Source of the DNA: a virus
Lineage: Duplodnaviria > Heunggongvirae > Uroviricota > Caudoviricetes
Virus record (IMG/VR): IMGVR_UViG_2660238209_000015
DNA length: 4,429 nucleotides
Strand: one strand, 5' to 3'
Both the position numbers and the translations under genes were made by a program. Below, in pieces: positions 1,414-4,398 of this stretch. Each line of letters begins with the position of its first letter. Position 1 is the stretch's first letter. Below the pieces are notes generated by a model that made no database searches, was not told where the DNA came from, and saw only the letters and a program-made list of their open reading frames with translations.

Positions 1414-1490
1414 TGGTGCGTTGTACTGGATTCGAACCAGTGACCGATTGCTTAGAAGGCAATTGCTCTGTCCGGCTGAGCTAACAACGC
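1414..1490 (-). tRNA. argO: tRNA-Arg (anticodon UCU), argO-like, as carried by lambdoid/Stx prophages
   Basis: Minus-strand sequence GCGTTGT-TA-GCTC-AGCCGGACA-GAGC-A-ATTGC-CTTCTAA-GCAAT-CGGTC-ACTGG-TTCGAAT-CCAGT-ACAACGC-A-CCA folds as a canonical cloverleaf: 7-bp acceptor stem, GGTTCGAATCC T-arm, anticodon loop with TCT at 34-36, encoded CCA. Confidence 0.9.
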
Positions 1491-1570: not shown

Positions 1571-1646
1571 TGGTGGCCCTTGCTGGATTTGAACCAGCGA
1601 CCTGGCGATTATGAGTCGCTCGCTCTCACCACTGAGCTAAAGGGCC
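1571..1646 (-). tRNA. ileZ: tRNA with CAU anticodon, most similar in architecture to minor tRNA-Ile2 (ileX/ileZ type, lysidine-modified); reads as Met by anticodon alone
   Basis: Minus strand GGCCCTT-TA-GCTC-AGTGGTGA-GAGC-G-AGCGA-CTCATAA-TCGCC-AGGTC-GCTGG-TTCAAAT-CCAGC-AAGGGCC-A-CCA, 76 nt, canonical cloverleaf, anticodon CAT. The acceptor stem and TTCAAAT T-loop resemble E. coli ileX as I recall it, more than elongator tRNA-Met. Confidence 0.88.
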
Positions 1647-1686: not shown

Positions 1687-2745
1687 TCATCCGTTACGAA
1701 TGATTAAATCCTGTACTTCCCGCACCGTCTGCTCAAAACGTTCAGTCTCCAGTTCAACGCCAGTTGCACGACGTCCCAGCGCCATCGCTGCTTTCACTGT
1801 CGACCCCGACCCCATGAAGAAATCTGCAACCAGGTCTCCCGGACGACTGCTTGCGCTGATTATCTGCTGCAACATTTCTGCCGTTTTTTCGCACGGATGT
1901 TTCCCTGGATAGTACTGCACCGGTTTATACGTCCACACATCGGTGTACGGCACCTGCACCGTCACACCGAAATACCGCCGCAGATGCTTATATTCACTCT
2001 GCAGCTCCGCATACTGTCGGTTCAGAGAGGCATACGTATCCACCAGCTGGTGGTGGGGCTTTTCCAGTTCACCCCGCTGATGCTTCTCTTCTGCCACCCG
2101 GGCAAACAGTGCCTGTAATTTCAGATAATCGCTTTCGTTCGGCAGCAGCCACTGACCGGCACTGAACCAGTGCGACACCATGTTTTTCTTTCCTGTGGCA
2201 TCTGCAATCTGTTTTGCCGTTATCCCCAGGACAGCGCGCGCATCACGAAAGTAAGCAATCAGCGGGGCCATCACATGCTGTTTCAGTGCCCTACCCTTCG
2301 CCTCATACCCGGCATCTTTCGGACGATACGGCCCCTGATAATGCTCTGCGAACAGAATGCGCTCTGTGGCGGGGAAATACGCCCGCAGGCTTTCCTTGTT
2401 GCACCCGTTCCAGCGTCCGGACGGCTTTGCCCAGATGATATGGTTCAGCACGTTAAACCGCTCACGCATCATGATTTCGGTGTCAGATGCCAGACGATGG
2501 CCACAGAACAGGTAAAGACTTCCGGCAGGTTTCAGCACCCGCCAGAACTGCGCAAGACACTGGTCCAGCCACTTCAGGTAATCTTCATCACCCGCCCACT
2601 GGTTATCCCAGCCCTCGGGTTTCACTTTGAAGTACGGCGGGTCCGTGACTATCAGGTCAACAGAATTTTCGGGTAACGACCGCATAAATTCCAGGCAGTC
2701 GGCGTTGATTAACTCACAACTGGATATTTTTACAGTATTAAGCAT
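1687..2745 (-). CDS. Orphan DNA methyltransferase, beta-class amino-MTase (N6-adenine likely; N6_N4_Mtase family)
   Basis: 352-aa ORF. Motif IV DPPY (…SVDLIVTDPPYF…) is near the N-terminus and motif I FxGxG (…DFFMGSGSTVKAAMALGRRATGVE…) near the C-terminus; this IV-then-I order defines the beta group. DPPY rather than SPPY favours N6-adenine. No restriction endonuclease partner is present in the window. Stop TGA at 1689..1687, 40 nt upstream of the tRNA cluster. Confidence 0.9.
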   Translation of the reverse strand: MLNTVKISSCELINADCLEFMRSLPENSVDLIVTDPPYFKVKPEGWDNQWAGDEDYLKWLDQCLAQFWRVLKPAGSLYLFCGHRLASDTEIMMRERFNVLNHIIWAKPSGRWNGCNKESLRAYFPATERILFAEHYQGPYRPKDAGYEAKGRALKQHVMAPLIAYFRDARAVLGITAKQIADATGKKNMVSHWFSAGQWLLPNESDYLKLQALFARVAEEKHQRGELEKPHHQLVDTYASLNRQYAELQSEYKHLRRYFGVTVQVPYTDVWTYKPVQYYPGKHPCEKTAEMLQQIISASSRPGDLVADFFMGSGSTVKAAMALGRRATGVELETERFEQTVREVQDLIIRNG

Positions 2746-2777
2746 GGATCATTAAGCCTGTCTCTGATAGGCTCATT

Positions 2778-2796
2778 CTGCTTTTGCGCAAAGCAG
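2778..2796. promoter_or_regulatory. Near-perfect 19-bp palindrome 33-51 bp upstream of the methyltransferase start (candidate operator or 5'-leader hairpin)
   Basis: ctgcttt-tgcgc-aaagcag: 7-bp arms (ctgcttt / aaagcag) are exact reverse complements around a 5-nt centre. Confidence 0.35.
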
Positions 2797-2837
2797 TGGG
2801 CCTGAGGTTTGCTTGTGAACCCAACGCATGAGCAGAT

Positions 2838-2868
2838 GGCTGGTGGGTGCCCCTTACACCCACCAGCC
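2838..2868. repeat. 12-bp perfect GC-rich inverted repeat (stable hairpin) in the methyltransferase upstream region
   Basis: ggctggtgggtg (2838-2849) and cacccaccagcc (2857-2868) are exact reverse complements, separated by a 7-nt loop cccctta. No adjacent U-tract on either strand, so it is not a canonical intrinsic terminator. Confidence 0.5.
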
Positions 2869-2881
2869 GCCCATTTACCAC

Positions 2882-2909
2882 AAATAAAAAAGCCTTCAGG
2901 ACTGAAGGC
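2882..2909 (-). terminator. Rho-independent terminator (minus strand) at the 3' end of the small ORF
   Basis: Plus-strand gccttcag-ga-ctgaaggc (2892-2909) is a perfect 8-bp inverted repeat (7 bp effective with a 4-nt loop), preceded on the plus strand by aaataaaaaa (2882-2891), which is a U-rich tract 3' of the hairpin on the minus strand. It overlaps the stop codon of the small ORF. Confidence 0.6.
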
Positions 2910-3093
2910 GTCTGTAACAACCAAACTGATAGTCTGCCAGACCCGCCATAACCAGCTGGGTCAGTATTAACTGGCAGCGTTCGCGTGAAAGGTAAGTATT
3001 CTGCGCAATCTCCCCGACTGTCGCCGGGTCGGTAACGCTTAATTCATTAAACACCACTCTGGCGGTTTCTGTCATATCCTGCTGTTTCAGCAT
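2896..3093 (-). CDS. Small hypothetical protein (65 aa), possibly a winged-helix/HTH DNA-binding protein
   Basis: ATG at 3093..3091 preceded by AAAAGGGAAAAAGAC (GGG-type SD, ~8-nt spacer). Product MLKQQDMTETARVVFNELSVTDPATVGEIAQNTYLSRERCQLILTQLVMAGLADYQFGCYRRLQS has a helix-turn-helix-like pattern reminiscent of small PapI/FaeA-type regulators (from memory, unverified). The ORF track extends this frame to 3216 (GTG start, 106 aa), but that extension runs through AT-rich sequence and abuts terminator T1, so the shorter form is preferred. Confidence 0.4.
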   Translation of the reverse strand: MLKQQDMTETARVVFNELSVTDPATVGEIAQNTYLSRERCQLILTQLVMAGLADYQFGCYRRLQS

Positions 3094-3216
3094 GTCTTTT
3101 TCCCTTTTCCGGTTAACGTGACACACCAATAACTCTTGTCGAAAAAGCCAGCAACCTGAAAGAACGGTATTAATAACCACCAGCGAATTTATTGCGCTGC
3201 TGTATATTACGGACAC

Positions 3217-3238
3217 AAAAAAACCACCTTCCGGTGGC
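3217..3238 (-). terminator. Rho-independent terminator (minus strand) ~95 nt downstream of the Q-like gene; tR'-like candidate
   Basis: Minus strand GCCACC-GGAA-GGTGG followed by TTTTTTT: 5-6 bp G:C-rich stem, GNRA-type tetraloop, then U7 (plus-strand a7 at 3217-3223, stem 3224-3237). Confidence 0.6.
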
Positions 3239-3334
3239 TTCCTTGTGCGAAAAAACTTGCATTTCGCCTCGCGATACAGCTTTGCGAAGCTTACAGGAAT
3301 TCAAGCTGTTTCTGCGTAAAAAAGCAAGCTTTTT

Positions 3335-3877
3335 TTATCGAAATGAATCGTGCATAGGTACATAAAGCATGTGTTCAGCCACGGCTAACCAACCTGCAAT
3401 ACGTTTCTCACATGTGCTGAAACACCATTCCGGGTGAGTACGATTTAAACATTCTGCCATTTTTCTCTTACTCATTCCCCGTCCTTCGTACCTTTGCCGG
3501 AGAATATTGATTAGCCCGGGATATTCCCCAAGCACCTCACTGATAACGCGATCAATAATCAACGCCTCTGTGTCTGTACAATGTGACAACCAGCTCTTCT
3601 GCTTCCCTCTGGTCATATCCCGAAAAAATGCCTCAAGTTCCGGTTTTTCCAGCCCGGATTTCTTCATGCTGCGTAAAACCTCATTAACTGCTGTTTTCGT
3701 CAGCTTTTTCGAAACCAGTAACCGGTTAAACATATTTCCGGATTTACCCCCACCGATATACGACCACCGCCCCCACATCCGTAATTTCCCCTGGATCCAG
3801 ACTGCTTCCAGCGTGTTCAGGCGTAAATGTTCGCCGCTTTTGCCTGTAATTTCCGGATATATCATATTTACGCTCAC
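3335..3877 (-). CDS. Putative late-gene antiterminator (Q-like) by synteny; function not confirmed
   Basis: 180-aa ORF with GTG start at 3877 (the first ATG is at 3865, giving 176 aa); stop TAA at 3337..3335. It lies immediately downstream of the rusA 3' fragment with a GTGA stop/start overlap, and is followed within ~100 nt by an intrinsic terminator, then the methyltransferase, tRNAs and nanS-p. This is the position Q occupies in lambdoid phages of the 82/DLP12 type (rusA-Q-pR'-tR'-late genes). An LRMWGRW segment loosely recalls a W-G-x-W segment in Q proteins as I remember them. No search was performed. Confidence 0.5.
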   Translation of the reverse strand: MSVNMIYPEITGKSGEHLRLNTLEAVWIQGKLRMWGRWSYIGGGKSGNMFNRLLVSKKLTKTAVNEVLRSMKKSGLEKPELEAFFRDMTRGKQKSWLSHCTDTEALIIDRVISEVLGEYPGLINILRQRYEGRGMSKRKMAECLNRTHPEWCFSTCEKRIAGWLAVAEHMLYVPMHDSFR

Positions 3878-4017
3878 TCACTCTCAATTTTGTAAATCTT
3901 CACGCCCAGCCGTCCCCCAGGAACGCGCTGACCGCGCACAATATTGATTTCATCAAACTGCTCGTCGTCTATGAGAAGTCCGGCATGCGTCAGCGCATCC
4001 AGTGGTGCTTTCAGGAT
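3874..4017 (-). pseudogene. rusA: 3' fragment (47 codons plus stop) of rusA, Holliday-junction resolvase, truncated at its 5' side by the IS insertion
   Basis: The minus-strand frame is open from the IS boundary (4017) to TGA at 3876..3874: ILKAPLDALTHAGLLIDDEQFDEINIVRGQRVPGGRLGVKIYKIESE*. This aligns with the C-terminus of E. coli RusA as recalled (…FDALTKAGFWLDDAQVVDY…KGGRLELTITEMGNE), with conserved DALT.AG, LDD.Q and GGRL. No start codon or N-terminal portion on this side of the IS. Confidence 0.65.
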
Positions 4018-4071
4018 TGAACCGCCCCGGAAATCCTGGAGACTAAACTCCCTGAGAAAGAGGTAAACAGG

Positions 4072-4398
4072 ATGACTAAAAATACTCGTTTTTCCCCCGA
4101 AGTCCGTCAGCGGGCGATTCGTATGGTTCTGGAAAGTCAGGATGAATATGACTCACAGTGGGCGGCAATTTGTTCCATTGCCCCAAAGATTGGCTGTACG
4201 CCGGAGACTCTGCGTGTCTGGGTTCGCCAGCATGAGCGGGATACCGGGGGCGGTGATGGTGGGCTCACCAGCGCTGAACGTCAGCGTCTGAAAGAGCTGG
4301 AACGTGAAAATCGTGAACTGCGCCGCAGTAACGATATCCTTCGCCAGGCTTCCGCTTATTTTGCGAAGGCGGAGTTCGACCGCCTCTGGAAAAAATGA
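4072..4398 (+). CDS. IS3-family transposase OrfA (HTH DNA-binding subunit), IS629-like
   Basis: 108-aa [111 protein letters not shown]; N-terminal HTH plus leucine-zipper-like C-terminus typical of IS3 OrfA. SD GAGGTAAACAGG upstream of the ATG at 4072. Confidence 0.9.

Follow-up and report, generated by a model that had tools for sequence, protein, structure and literature searches.

A gene for a DNA methyltransferase with no restriction gene beside it, located in the late region of a phage, raises the questions of which bases the enzyme would methylate, when it would be produced and whether this particular copy is active. The window analyzed here is a stretch of 4,429 nucleotides from a virus of the Caudoviricetes (IMG/VR record IMGVR_UViG_2660238209_000015). 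A preliminary description, made from the sequence alone, had placed an orphan beta-class N6-adenine-type methyltransferase gene in the late operon, between terminators and tRNA genes, and had proposed that methylation is timed to lytic replication and that the specificity of the enzyme cannot be deduced. The features on which the analysis is based all lie on the minus strand and are given below in the order of that strand.

3335..3877 (-), gene for a candidate Q-like late-gene antiterminator of the DUF1133 family, 180 aa (PF06576, E 1.1e-110)
3299..3327 (-), candidate late promoter pR', inferred from a -35 box TTGCTT (3327-3322), a 17-nt spacer and a -10 box TTGAAT (3304-3299)
3217..3238 (-), intrinsic terminator of the tR' type, GCCACC-GGAA-GGTGG followed by T7
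2896..3093 (-), small ORF of 65 aa, probably winged-helix, named "TrmB family transcriptional regulator" by NCBI (phrog_331, E 2e-44)
2882..2909 (-), second intrinsic terminator, GCCTTCA-GTCC-TGAAGGC followed by TTTTTTATTT (terminator scan), overlapping the stop codon of the 65-aa ORF
2838..2868 (-), GC-rich hairpin of 13 bp without a U-run, in the conserved spacer 5' of the methyltransferase gene (RNA fold)
1687..2745 (-), methyltransferase gene, very probably of the M.EcoGII type (non-specific, N6-adenine), 352 aa with an ATG start (RefSeq WP_000935544.1)
1571..1646 (-), tRNA gene with anticodon CAU, tRNA-Ile in RefSeq (ileZ type) (ARAGORN; Rfam tRNA, 72.5 bits)
1414..1490 (-), tRNA-Arg (UCU) gene (ARAGORN; Rfam tRNA, 71.4 bits)

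At the level of sequence, the presence of a genuine and intact DNA adenine methyltransferase gene at 1687-2745 was confirmed. The ORF occupied exactly these coordinates, as had been described, and its product matched the PF01555 (N6_N4_Mtase) profile over residues 29-340 (E 1.5e-41, 143.3 bits, cut-off 26.7), the DNA-methyltransferase families of PHROG (E 7e-107) and a Type II methyltransferase model of PADLOC (E 1.7e-159). In the translation, motif IV (VTDPPY, residues 33-38, with DPPY at 35-38) was found near the N-terminus and motif I (FFMGSGST, residues 309-316, with FxGxG as FMGSG at 310-314) near the C-terminus, and the reading frame was unbroken across its 352 codons, with DPPY and FxGxG untouched. 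The beta class is defined by motif IV (D/N/S-P-P-Y/F/W), a variable region and then motif I (FxGxG) (PMC7544214). The order of the motifs, established here together with the identity of the gene, therefore assigns the enzyme to this class, and the earlier designation as an orphan beta-class N6-adenine-type enzyme was upheld by the motif order and by the family match. A sequence search of the PDB returned only distant beta-class relatives, of which the best were 9c3u and 8urk (entries named "Methyltransferase", E about 1e-22), followed by RsrI and CcrM; no structure of M.EcoGII was retrieved from the PDB by this search.

The closest characterized relative was M.EcoGII of E. coli O104:H4 C227-11 (WP_000935520.1), to which the protein was identical at 328 of 349 residues (94%), full length and gap-free. 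The reference sequence of M.EcoGII was machine-read from the supplement of PMC11551740 and verified against the O104:H4 chromosome, and WP_000935520.1 is the published sequence, machine-reading errors of the supplement aside. Both enzymes are solitary and prophage-borne and have the same N-terminus and the same motifs, whereas 21 substitutions and a C-terminus three residues longer distinguish the protein of the window. Synteny was also observed in this analysis, since the order Q, small ORF, methyltransferase, tRNA-Ile, tRNA-Arg, esterase and holin is the same at both loci; here, the complete order is Q-type antiterminator, terminator, small winged-helix-like ORF, methyltransferase, tRNA-Ile2, tRNA-Arg, nanS-p esterase and lysis genes. 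The loci differ in the type of the upstream antiterminator (DUF1133 here, "antiterminator Q family" in O104:H4) and in the number of tRNA-Arg copies (one here, two in O104:H4). The gene is very likely an orthologue of M.EcoGII/M.EcoGI carried by a prophage, and would encode a solitary, SAM-dependent enzyme of the beta class that methylates adenine at N6 in any context. Because it is a copy of M.EcoGII with 94% identity and occupies the late-operon position that the gene has in many E. coli prophages, this methyltransferase is already known, as an ordinary prophage copy of a well-studied enzyme.

The non-specific m6A activity, the silence in lysogens and the toxicity attributed to this family are taken from the literature. 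M.EcoGII has non-specific m6A activity, methylates RNA besides DNA, and is fully active and non-specific when cloned alone; M.EcoGI, which differs from it at 16 of 349 positions, is non-specific too, and both enzymes are off during normal growth, their constitutive expression being harmful (Murray et al., 2018; PMC5778455). The M.EcoGII enzyme is likewise described as silent in lysogens and toxic in a review (PMC12707154). Two homologues of M.EcoGI/GII with 92-94% similarity, M.Eco95JB1I and M.Eco95JB1II, were described in O111:H- outbreak strains (Forde et al., 2019; PMC6602927); their predicted specificity is given there as "nonspecific", and no methylation assignable to them was detected in the lysogen methylomes. 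The serogroup is common to the host of the prophage studied here, and the protein of the window is very probably M.Eco95JB1I or M.Eco95JB1II.

Regarding specificity, adenine methylation in any context is expected of the enzyme of the window because of its 94% identity to M.EcoGII. The claim that specificity could not be read from the sequence was consequently abandoned, as homology predicts any adenine, and a sequence-reading role of the region between motifs IV and I, where a target-recognition domain had been placed, found no support in this family (PMC7544214). A sequence-specific orphan enzyme with its target set by that region seems very improbable to us. Several of the 21 residues that differ from M.EcoGII are located between the motifs, and RefSeq names some copies "site-specific DNA-methyltransferase", but this label is a generic family name; moreover, the 16 positions at which M.EcoGI departs from M.EcoGII go with non-specific activity as well, and non-specific activity is also the prediction for the O111:H- homologues, whose similarity is about 93% (PMC6602927). 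Methylome tests should seek context-free m6A and not a new motif. The absence of a new methylated motif on induction, which had been proposed as a refutation, would mislead, because a non-specific enzyme yields no motif.

Practically no credence is given to the gene being the modification half of a restriction-modification system with a distant endonuclease, or an N4-cytosine methyltransferase. Although PF01555 spans both N6A and N4C enzymes and the PADLOC models matched were those of Type II methyltransferases, the protein carries the DPPY motif and shares 94% identity with an enzyme whose m6A activity is biochemically proven, and the methyltransferase was in a phage late-operon context in every relative inspected. 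An adjacent cognate endonuclease, as in Type II systems, was not found: there is no restriction gene in the window, in agreement with the preliminary description, and the annotation of the 34 kb around the identical locus of E. coli O111:NM FWSEC0005, which extend from the tail genes as far as the integrase and the adjoining potC, contains no restriction endonuclease; the only nuclease listed there is an HNH gene adjoining the terminase genes.

The Stx-phage rRNA methyltransferase (PMC10810198) was also considered as an identity and rejected, as it is an MT-A70 enzyme with DPPW and has a different position in the prophage; neither the MT-A70 fold nor DPPW was found here, where the motif is DPPY and the family PF01555.

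The time of expression was considered from the position of the gene, which lies 3' of the Q-like gene and the terminators and 5' of the tRNA genes. In the identical locus of O111:NM, the same strand carries the genes for holin, lysozyme, Rz-type lysis protein, terminase, capsid, portal and tail. An antiterminator gene, a candidate promoter and a nearby terminator were thus found on one side, and lysis and morphogenesis genes of the same strand on the other, so that the late-operon position stands as originally described, including the two upstream U-run hairpins (about 3238-3217 and 2909-2882) and the two downstream tRNA genes. The product of the Q-like gene matched phrog_753 ("anti-termination protein Q-like", E 3.8e-74) and, less strongly, PF06530 (Phage_antitermQ, E 1.4e-8). 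The latter homology weakly suggests a Q function for DUF1133 proteins; no experimental test of antitermination by these proteins was found in the published literature.

The candidate pR' occupies the position at which, in the Xenorhabdus and Providencia loci L122 and L153, clear TTGACT-17-TAATAT / TATAGT promoters lie 3' of DUF1133 Q-like genes; there as well as here, the promoter is followed by a conserved GTA(T)AAGCTTCGC-like segment and by a terminator. Counterparts of the tR'-type terminator, consisting of a hairpin plus T7-8, were present in L112, L122 and L153, and the RNA of positions 3200-3300 (-) was predicted to fold with -37.6 kcal/mol (z -4.84). The unit of promoter and terminator after DUF1133 Q-like genes is conserved across four genera, the promoter of the window being a weak candidate. 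On the coding strand, no promoter was called by the consensus scan from the Q-like gene to the methyltransferase gene, and no sigma-70-like site in the 150 nt upstream of the latter; the scan is unable to exclude weak promoters, because the candidate pR', with its poor -10 box TTGAAT, was also missed. The spacer 5' of the methyltransferase gene was conserved in 81 of 83 viral or reference loci, and positions 2746-2895 (-) gave a predicted fold of -61.9 kcal/mol (z -3.70).

In the arrangement that these features suggest, the small winged-helix-like ORF and the methyltransferase gene would open the late operon of a lambdoid E. coli O111 prophage as its first cassette, directly 3' of Q, the promoter and tR'. 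In the lysogen, transcripts should halt at both upstream terminators and the toxic methyltransferase would be kept off; the silence of the gene of the window is deduced from these two terminators, and silence in lysogens has been reported for the O104:H4 and O111:H- homologues. Upon induction, Q-modified RNA polymerase would pass the terminators, the methyltransferase would then be co-produced with the products of the lysis and head genes, and the replicating phage DNA would be heavily methylated before packaging. The progeny DNA would be protected in the next host from many restriction systems sensitive to adenine methylation. Both the Q dependence and this anti-restriction benefit are what we infer for the locus, and we know of no direct demonstration to date of virion-DNA protection by M.EcoGII-type enzymes. 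The lytic timing proposed in the preliminary description agrees with the accepted view for the M.EcoGI/GII family (PMC5778455 and PMC6602927).

Relatives of the M.EcoGII-type gene were found in 1989 of 5426 complete E. coli genomes, that is, in over one third of them, and the family is characterized and a common research tool. The literature already describes the family as silent in lysogens and presumes an anti-restriction role for it. The finding carries little weight as a discovery, and its useful outcome is the correction of the earlier reading.

Two observations had been absent from that reading, namely the private change P288T, which hits a near-invariant residue, and the damage to the host prophage. 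The sequence of the window was found, with 100% identity, in a lambdoid prophage integrated at potC in E. coli O111:NM (FWSEC0005). About 140 bp upstream of its Q-like gene, this prophage carries IS1203 and, next to it, a deletion; its portal gene has a frameshift and its rusA is truncated. Late transcription and virion production may never happen in this strain, the gene copy may be weak or never expressed, and its activity in the O111 strain is doubtful because of the damage to the prophage. In the protein, two of the changes with respect to M.EcoGII are private and affect conserved positions, Q200L (codon 2146-2148) and P288T (codon 1882-1884). The latter is private to its lineage and hits the near-invariant HPxxKP motif 21 residues before FxGxG; DPPY, FxGxG, H283 and K287 are intact, and residue 288 is T. 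Proline 288 was kept in 80 of 81 diverse representatives of the family, in all 80 Enterobacterales loci and in 81 of 83 viral or reference loci, whereas the exact 61-nt stretch with the T288 codon was present in 48 of the 669 E. coli genomes matching that stretch, with O111 strains among those listed. The SUPREM paper was searched for mutational data on E286, K287 and P288 and none were found. Since P288T is located at a near-invariant proline, the enzyme of the window could be weak or dead.

These observations give a tentative place to the possibility, which we hold to be unlikely but not negligible, that the allele is a decaying copy, weakly active or inactive through P288T, Q200L and the defective prophage, and that it persists only by linkage. 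This explanation agrees with the family assignment and departs from the main reading on present-day function alone; P288T may mark a natural loss-of-function allele of the O111 lineage. The near-invariance of P288 within HPxxKP, the limitation of the 61-nt T288 stretch to 48 genomes and the frameshifted portal, IS1203 insertion and truncated rusA all point to decay, and loss of the methyltransferase is common in relatives: Sakai-type Stx2a phages retain only 111 nt of the gene, and the full gene was missing from 13 of 75 loci selected by the small ORF. By contrast, the frame of 352 codons is intact with DPPY and FxGxG unaltered, just two positions depart from the conserved state, and the identical protein is retained in many O111 genomes, which argues against decay. 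P288T and the prophage damage make this O111 allele and its prophage a poor choice for a methylome test.

The 65-aa ORF was analyzed as a possible companion of the enzyme. It showed a weak match to Pfam TrmB (E 0.004), and a homologue matched DprA_WH with 26.4 bits (cut-off 22.9). Its AlphaFold2 model contained four helices with a mean pLDDT of 68 and gave no Foldseek match in the PDB at E <= 0.001, so no fold was assigned. A small ORF was found upstream of the methyltransferase gene in 58 of 75 Enterobacterales loci and in 78 of 83 viral or reference loci. It is conceivable, though we think it improbable, that this winged-helix-like protein partners or controls the methyltransferase, directing or restraining it toward phage DNA or an RNA target, or regulating its expression. 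The model for this idea is the Stx-phage MT-A70 methyltransferase, which needs the winged-helix PNB-2 to prefer 16S rRNA. In the 58 Enterobacterales loci the small ORF lies about 55-195 nt 5' of the methyltransferase gene, even at 37-50% small-ORF identity, and the methyltransferase gene is directly 3' in 62 of the 75 loci selected by the small ORF; the activity of M.EcoGII on RNA (PMC5778455) fits a partner, and a winged-helix partner that alters the substrate choice of a methyltransferase has a precedent in the Stx phage (PMC10810198). However, cloned M.EcoGII is fully active and non-specific without any partner (PMC5778455), the two genes are separated here by a terminator, and the precedent enzyme belongs to another family (MT-A70, DPPW). 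Furthermore, the small ORF is kept without the methyltransferase in 9 of 75 small-ORF loci and is absent from 17 of 75 methyltransferase loci, the pairing may merely reflect a shared spot at the head of the late operon, and the winged-helix assignment is itself weak, given the Pfam E-value, the pLDDT and the Foldseek result. If the idea were true, an indiscriminate, toxic methylase would be gated or focused during late phage development, and the non-specific behaviour of the enzyme cloned alone would not be its natural mode. The recurrent pairing is a modest lead on how phages may restrain a toxic enzyme.

Beyond the M.EcoGII locus, the same cassette of a small ORF followed by a methyltransferase gene is present in Shigella phage SfV (orf47-orf48) and in mEp460 (mEp460_052-053), directly after Q and a terminator or spacer. 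There, holin, lysin and Rz come immediately after the cassette, whereas here the methyltransferase gene is separated from the lysis genes by the tRNA genes, by the small RNAs STnc100 and AgvB and by the gene for the nanS-p esterase. M.EcoPA8orf6770P of the Stx phage PA8, with PNB-2, is also an adenine methyltransferase of a Stx-type prophage with a small winged-helix gene immediately upstream, but it is an MT-A70 enzyme with DPPW, not homologous to the PF01555 enzyme, encoded near the integrase end of the phage and expressed in the lysogen, and its holoenzyme prefers 16S rRNA (Gong et al., 2023; PMC10810198). Mom of phage Mu resembles the M.EcoGII system in that it, too, serves a temperate phage by modifying DNA, stays silent in the lysogen, is toxic when expressed, is produced late and is taken to shield the progeny from restriction (PMC12707154). 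The two are unrelated in chemistry and in protein family. Mom is controlled by Dam methylation, OxyR and Com, and not by Q antitermination.

The methyltransferase proposed in the preliminary description at 1687-2745 was found as an open reading frame at exactly these coordinates, on the minus strand. Its 352-aa product (RefSeq WP_000935544.1) matched the Pfam family PF01555 (N6_N4_Mtase) with an E-value of 1.5e-41 and 143.3 bits (curated cut-off 26.7), and also matched PHROG DNA-methyltransferase families and the Type II methyltransferase model of PADLOC (E 1.7e-159). The beta class is defined by the location of motif IV before motif I (PMC7544214). Since VTDPPY (residues 33-38 of the translation) precedes FFMGSGST (residues 309-316), the beta-class assignment was borne out.

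Features of the methyltransferase region (window positions)
1414-1490, minus: tRNA gene, anticodon UCU, downstream of the methyltransferase gene on the same strand
1571-1646, minus: tRNA gene, anticodon CAU (tRNA-Ile in RefSeq)
1656-1684, minus: conserved promoter-like element (TTGCGG, 17 nt, TATTAT), starting 3 nt past the methyltransferase stop codon
1687-2745, minus: methyltransferase gene, 352 aa, ATG start
1882-1884, minus: codon of P288T (CCG to ACG), private to the lineage of this allele
2146-2148, minus: codon of Q200L (CAG to CTG), private to the same lineage
2868-2838, minus: 13-bp GC-rich hairpin with no U-run, within the conserved spacer that separates the second terminator from the start of the methyltransferase
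2909-2882, minus: second terminator (terminator scan), GCCTTCA-GTCC-TGAAGGC then TTTTTTATTT, overlapping the 65-aa ORF at its stop codon
2896-3093, minus: winged-helix-like small ORF, 65 aa, found just 5' of methyltransferase genes of the M.EcoGII type in numerous Enterobacterales genera (loci L084-L248)
3238-3217, minus: first terminator, GCCACC-GGAA-GGTGG-TTTTTTT (hairpin and T7), ~100 nt past the Q-like stop codon
3327-3322 and 3304-3299, minus: candidate pR' promoter (TTGCTT, 17 nt, TTGAAT), by homology of position only
3335-3877, minus: Q-like gene, a DUF1133-family antiterminator candidate
3874-4020: rusA remnant of 147 nt, directly upstream of the Q-like gene
~4018: left end of IS1203, with orfA at 4072-4398 and an ALIL frameshift pseudoknot from 4353

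M.EcoGII from E. coli O104:H4 is a non-specific adenine methyltransferase (PMC5778455). Its sequence was taken from the machine-read supplement of PMC11551740, and the authentic gene was located on an O104:H4 chromosome (protein WP_000935520.1, 349 aa). Both versions agreed at 345 of 350 aligned positions, and the mismatches look like text-recognition errors. The methyltransferase studied here was identical to WP_000935520.1 at 328 of 349 residues (94%), without gaps; from this homology it is predicted to methylate adenine in any context, and the earlier statement that its specificity could not be read from the sequence was wrong in practice. M.EcoGI, with 16 of 349 residues different from M.EcoGII, is non-specific too, and phage 1720a-02 encodes a very similar enzyme (PMC5778455). 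The DNA identity between the phage 1720a-02 gene and that of the window was 93.5%. Under normal growth both M.EcoGI and M.EcoGII are unexpressed, and constitutive expression harms the cell (PMC5778455). Two homologues with the predicted specificity "nonspecific" have been described in O111:H- outbreak strains, and methylation attributable to them was not detected in the lysogen methylomes of these strains (Forde et al., PMC6602927). The enzyme has also been placed among the modifying enzymes expressed by temperate phages on induction (PMC12707154). The refutation suggested previously, the absence of a new methylated motif on induction, would mislead, since methylation by a non-specific enzyme leaves no motif.

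The whole window aligned in a single piece, at 100% identity, with the E. coli O111:NM FWSEC0005 chromosome, and many other O111 genomes were nearly identical to it. The FWSEC0005 copy lies inside a lambdoid prophage adjoining potC. Along the methyltransferase coding strand, the order in the annotation is IS1203 (opposite strand), a truncated ORF, the DUF1133 protein, a 65-aa hypothetical protein, the methyltransferase, tRNA-Ile, tRNA-Arg, a SASA-family esterase (nanS-p type), holin, YdfR, lysozyme, an antirepressor-like protein and a lysis protein, followed by the genes for terminase, capsid, portal and tail. The 34-kb stretch from the tail genes to the integrase has no annotated restriction endonuclease, its sole annotated nuclease being an HNH gene beside the terminase genes; this supports the orphan status attributed to the methyltransferase.

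The 180-aa Q-like protein matched DUF1133 (E 1.1e-110), more weakly Phage_antitermQ (E 1.4e-8), and strongly a PHROG annotated as anti-termination protein Q-like. The 101 nt around the first terminator folded far better than shuffled sequences (z -4.84). A consensus promoter scan gave no call at the candidate pR' (3327-3299), and the same interval was compared in Rosenbergiella, Xenorhabdus and Providencia loci with a DUF1133 gene upstream of the cassette. Clear promoters were present there just 3' of the DUF1133 gene (TTGACT, 16-17 nt, TAATAT or TATAGT); a conserved GTATAAGCTTCGC-like segment came next, and after it a hairpin plus T7-8. The arrangement of Q-like gene, promoter and terminator is the classical Q/pR'/tR' layout, the promoter being a candidate by positional homology. 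The 150-nt spacer before the methyltransferase also folded better than shuffles (z -3.7) and contained no promoter-like site at the threshold of the scan.

The small ORF, the spacer and the methyltransferase co-travel in 78-83 of 83 viral and reference loci. The antiterminator gene is variable (DUF1133 in only 16 of the 83), and sequence similarity among the loci begins about at, or just downstream of, the first terminator. Therefore, the promoter-terminator unit seems to be part of the antiterminator module, as would be expected. The viable phages SfV and mEp460 have a comparable order: Q, terminator or spacer, small ORF, methyltransferase, holin, lysin and Rz. With two terminators and a Q-like gene upstream, and tRNA and lysis genes downstream on the same strand, the proposed late-operon placement was upheld. 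As to the Q-dependent timing also proposed, dependence of expression on antitermination is a strong inference rather than a demonstration, and the timing is probable.

The promoter-like element after the methyltransferase stop codon aligned with a "putative tRNA promoter" annotated in phage VT2-Sakai (2114-2142 of its locus, L166), and therefore the tRNA genes may be transcribed independently of the late promoter. Further downstream, the small RNA STnc100 (Rfam) was matched at full length at 1096-1304 on the minus strand (175 bits, gathering score 47), in the interval that separates the tRNA genes from the esterase gene and holds stx in Stx phages. On the plus strand, 1035-1094 matched the prophage anti-sRNA AgvB (anti-GcvB) barely at threshold (56.6, gathering score 56) and AsxR below threshold, with a terminator-like hairpin at 1070-1087. 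The minus-strand segment 1-890 encodes the N-terminal 296 aa of a DUF1737 and SASA esterase (nanS-p type, 9-O-acetyl-sialic-acid esterase family), cut by the window edge; the full gene in the identical FWSEC0005 locus measures 1851 nt.

Homologues of the small ORF are mostly named "TrmB family transcriptional regulator" at NCBI. Its product gave a weak TrmB match in Pfam (E 0.004), and one homologue a weak DprA_WH match (26.4 bits, cut-off 22.9). AlphaFold2 returned a low-confidence four-helix model, for which Foldseek found no significant match. Of 75 Enterobacterales loci, 58 had the small ORF upstream of the methyltransferase, with identities of the ORF as low as 37-50%. When 75 loci were chosen by the small ORF alone, the methyltransferase was directly downstream in 62, partial in 4 and absent in 9, so that the linkage is strong, not absolute. 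It could simply be due to both genes occupying the head of the late operon, where SfV orf47-orf48 form a similar two-gene cassette. A role as partner or controller of the methyltransferase seems improbable. The precedent, a Stx-phage MT-A70 methyltransferase whose preference for 16S rRNA depends on a winged-helix partner encoded upstream (PMC10810198), is an analogy only, because that enzyme (DPPW) is unrelated to the one described here (DPPY, PF01555).

Both private substitutions concern conserved positions. P288 belongs to the near-invariant HPxxKP motif (HPCEKP), 21 residues before FxGxG; in the usual nomenclature this segment would be motif X, part of the cofactor pocket. Proline occupies position 288 in 81 of the 83 viral or reference loci (the other two carry the same allele as the window), in all 80 Enterobacterales loci and in 80 of 81 diverse representatives with 30-66% identity. 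Q200 is invariant in Enterobacterales and variable in the wider family. The exact 61-nt stretch with the T288 codon was present in 48 of the 669 E. coli genomes matching that stretch; O111 strains were among the listed genomes with the exact stretch, and the near-identical O157:H7 copies listed were each one base off. The host prophage itself is damaged. Its portal gene is annotated as frameshifted (2686-5270 of the FWSEC0005 locus, L001), so virions are probably not made. Relative to O111:H- strain 11128, a deletion of ~1.8 kb next to IS1203 has removed hok/gef, DUF968 genes and most of rusA, leaving IS1203 ~140 bp upstream of the Q-like gene. Therefore, this copy of the methyltransferase may be impaired, and may never be expressed within a productive lytic cycle.

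Megablast detected relatives of the gene in 1989 of the 5426 complete E. coli genomes (as many as 7 copies in a single genome) and in 157 phage records, mostly named Stx2-converting phages. At the protein level, relatives with 57-95% identity are spread over the Enterobacterales (Escherichia albertii, Kosakonia, Enterobacter, Klebsiella, Citrobacter, Erwinia, Xenorhabdus, Photorhabdus, Providencia, Proteus and Morganella), and an exhaustive profile search yielded 284 cluster representatives at E <= 1e-30. In Sakai-type Stx2a phages no more than the final 111 nt of the gene are left, flanked by the tR' terminators and the tRNA genes (VT2-Sakai, L166 2001-2111; many Stx2a records), a remnant that looks like the scar of a gene loss.

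According to the literature, M.EcoGII uses AdoMet to methylate adenine at N6 in any context, RNA included, and is toxic and silent in lysogens. Alongside the observed identity, motifs, synteny, terminators and lack of an annotated partner endonuclease, a course of events can be proposed. The two terminators would hold the toxic methyltransferase off in the lysogen; on induction, antiterminated late transcripts would allow its production while phage DNA replicates, and the packaged genomes, densely methylated, would withstand many of the restriction systems met in the next host.

The preliminary observation is thus confirmed, being right on class, orphan status and position, with the timing probable. 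The methyltransferase is a known enzyme in a context that has been described before, and a large share of E. coli genomes carries it. M.EcoGII itself lies in the same neighbourhood, formed by an antiterminator Q family protein, a 67-aa hypothetical protein, the methyltransferase, tRNA-Ile, two tRNA-Arg, a SASA esterase and a holin.
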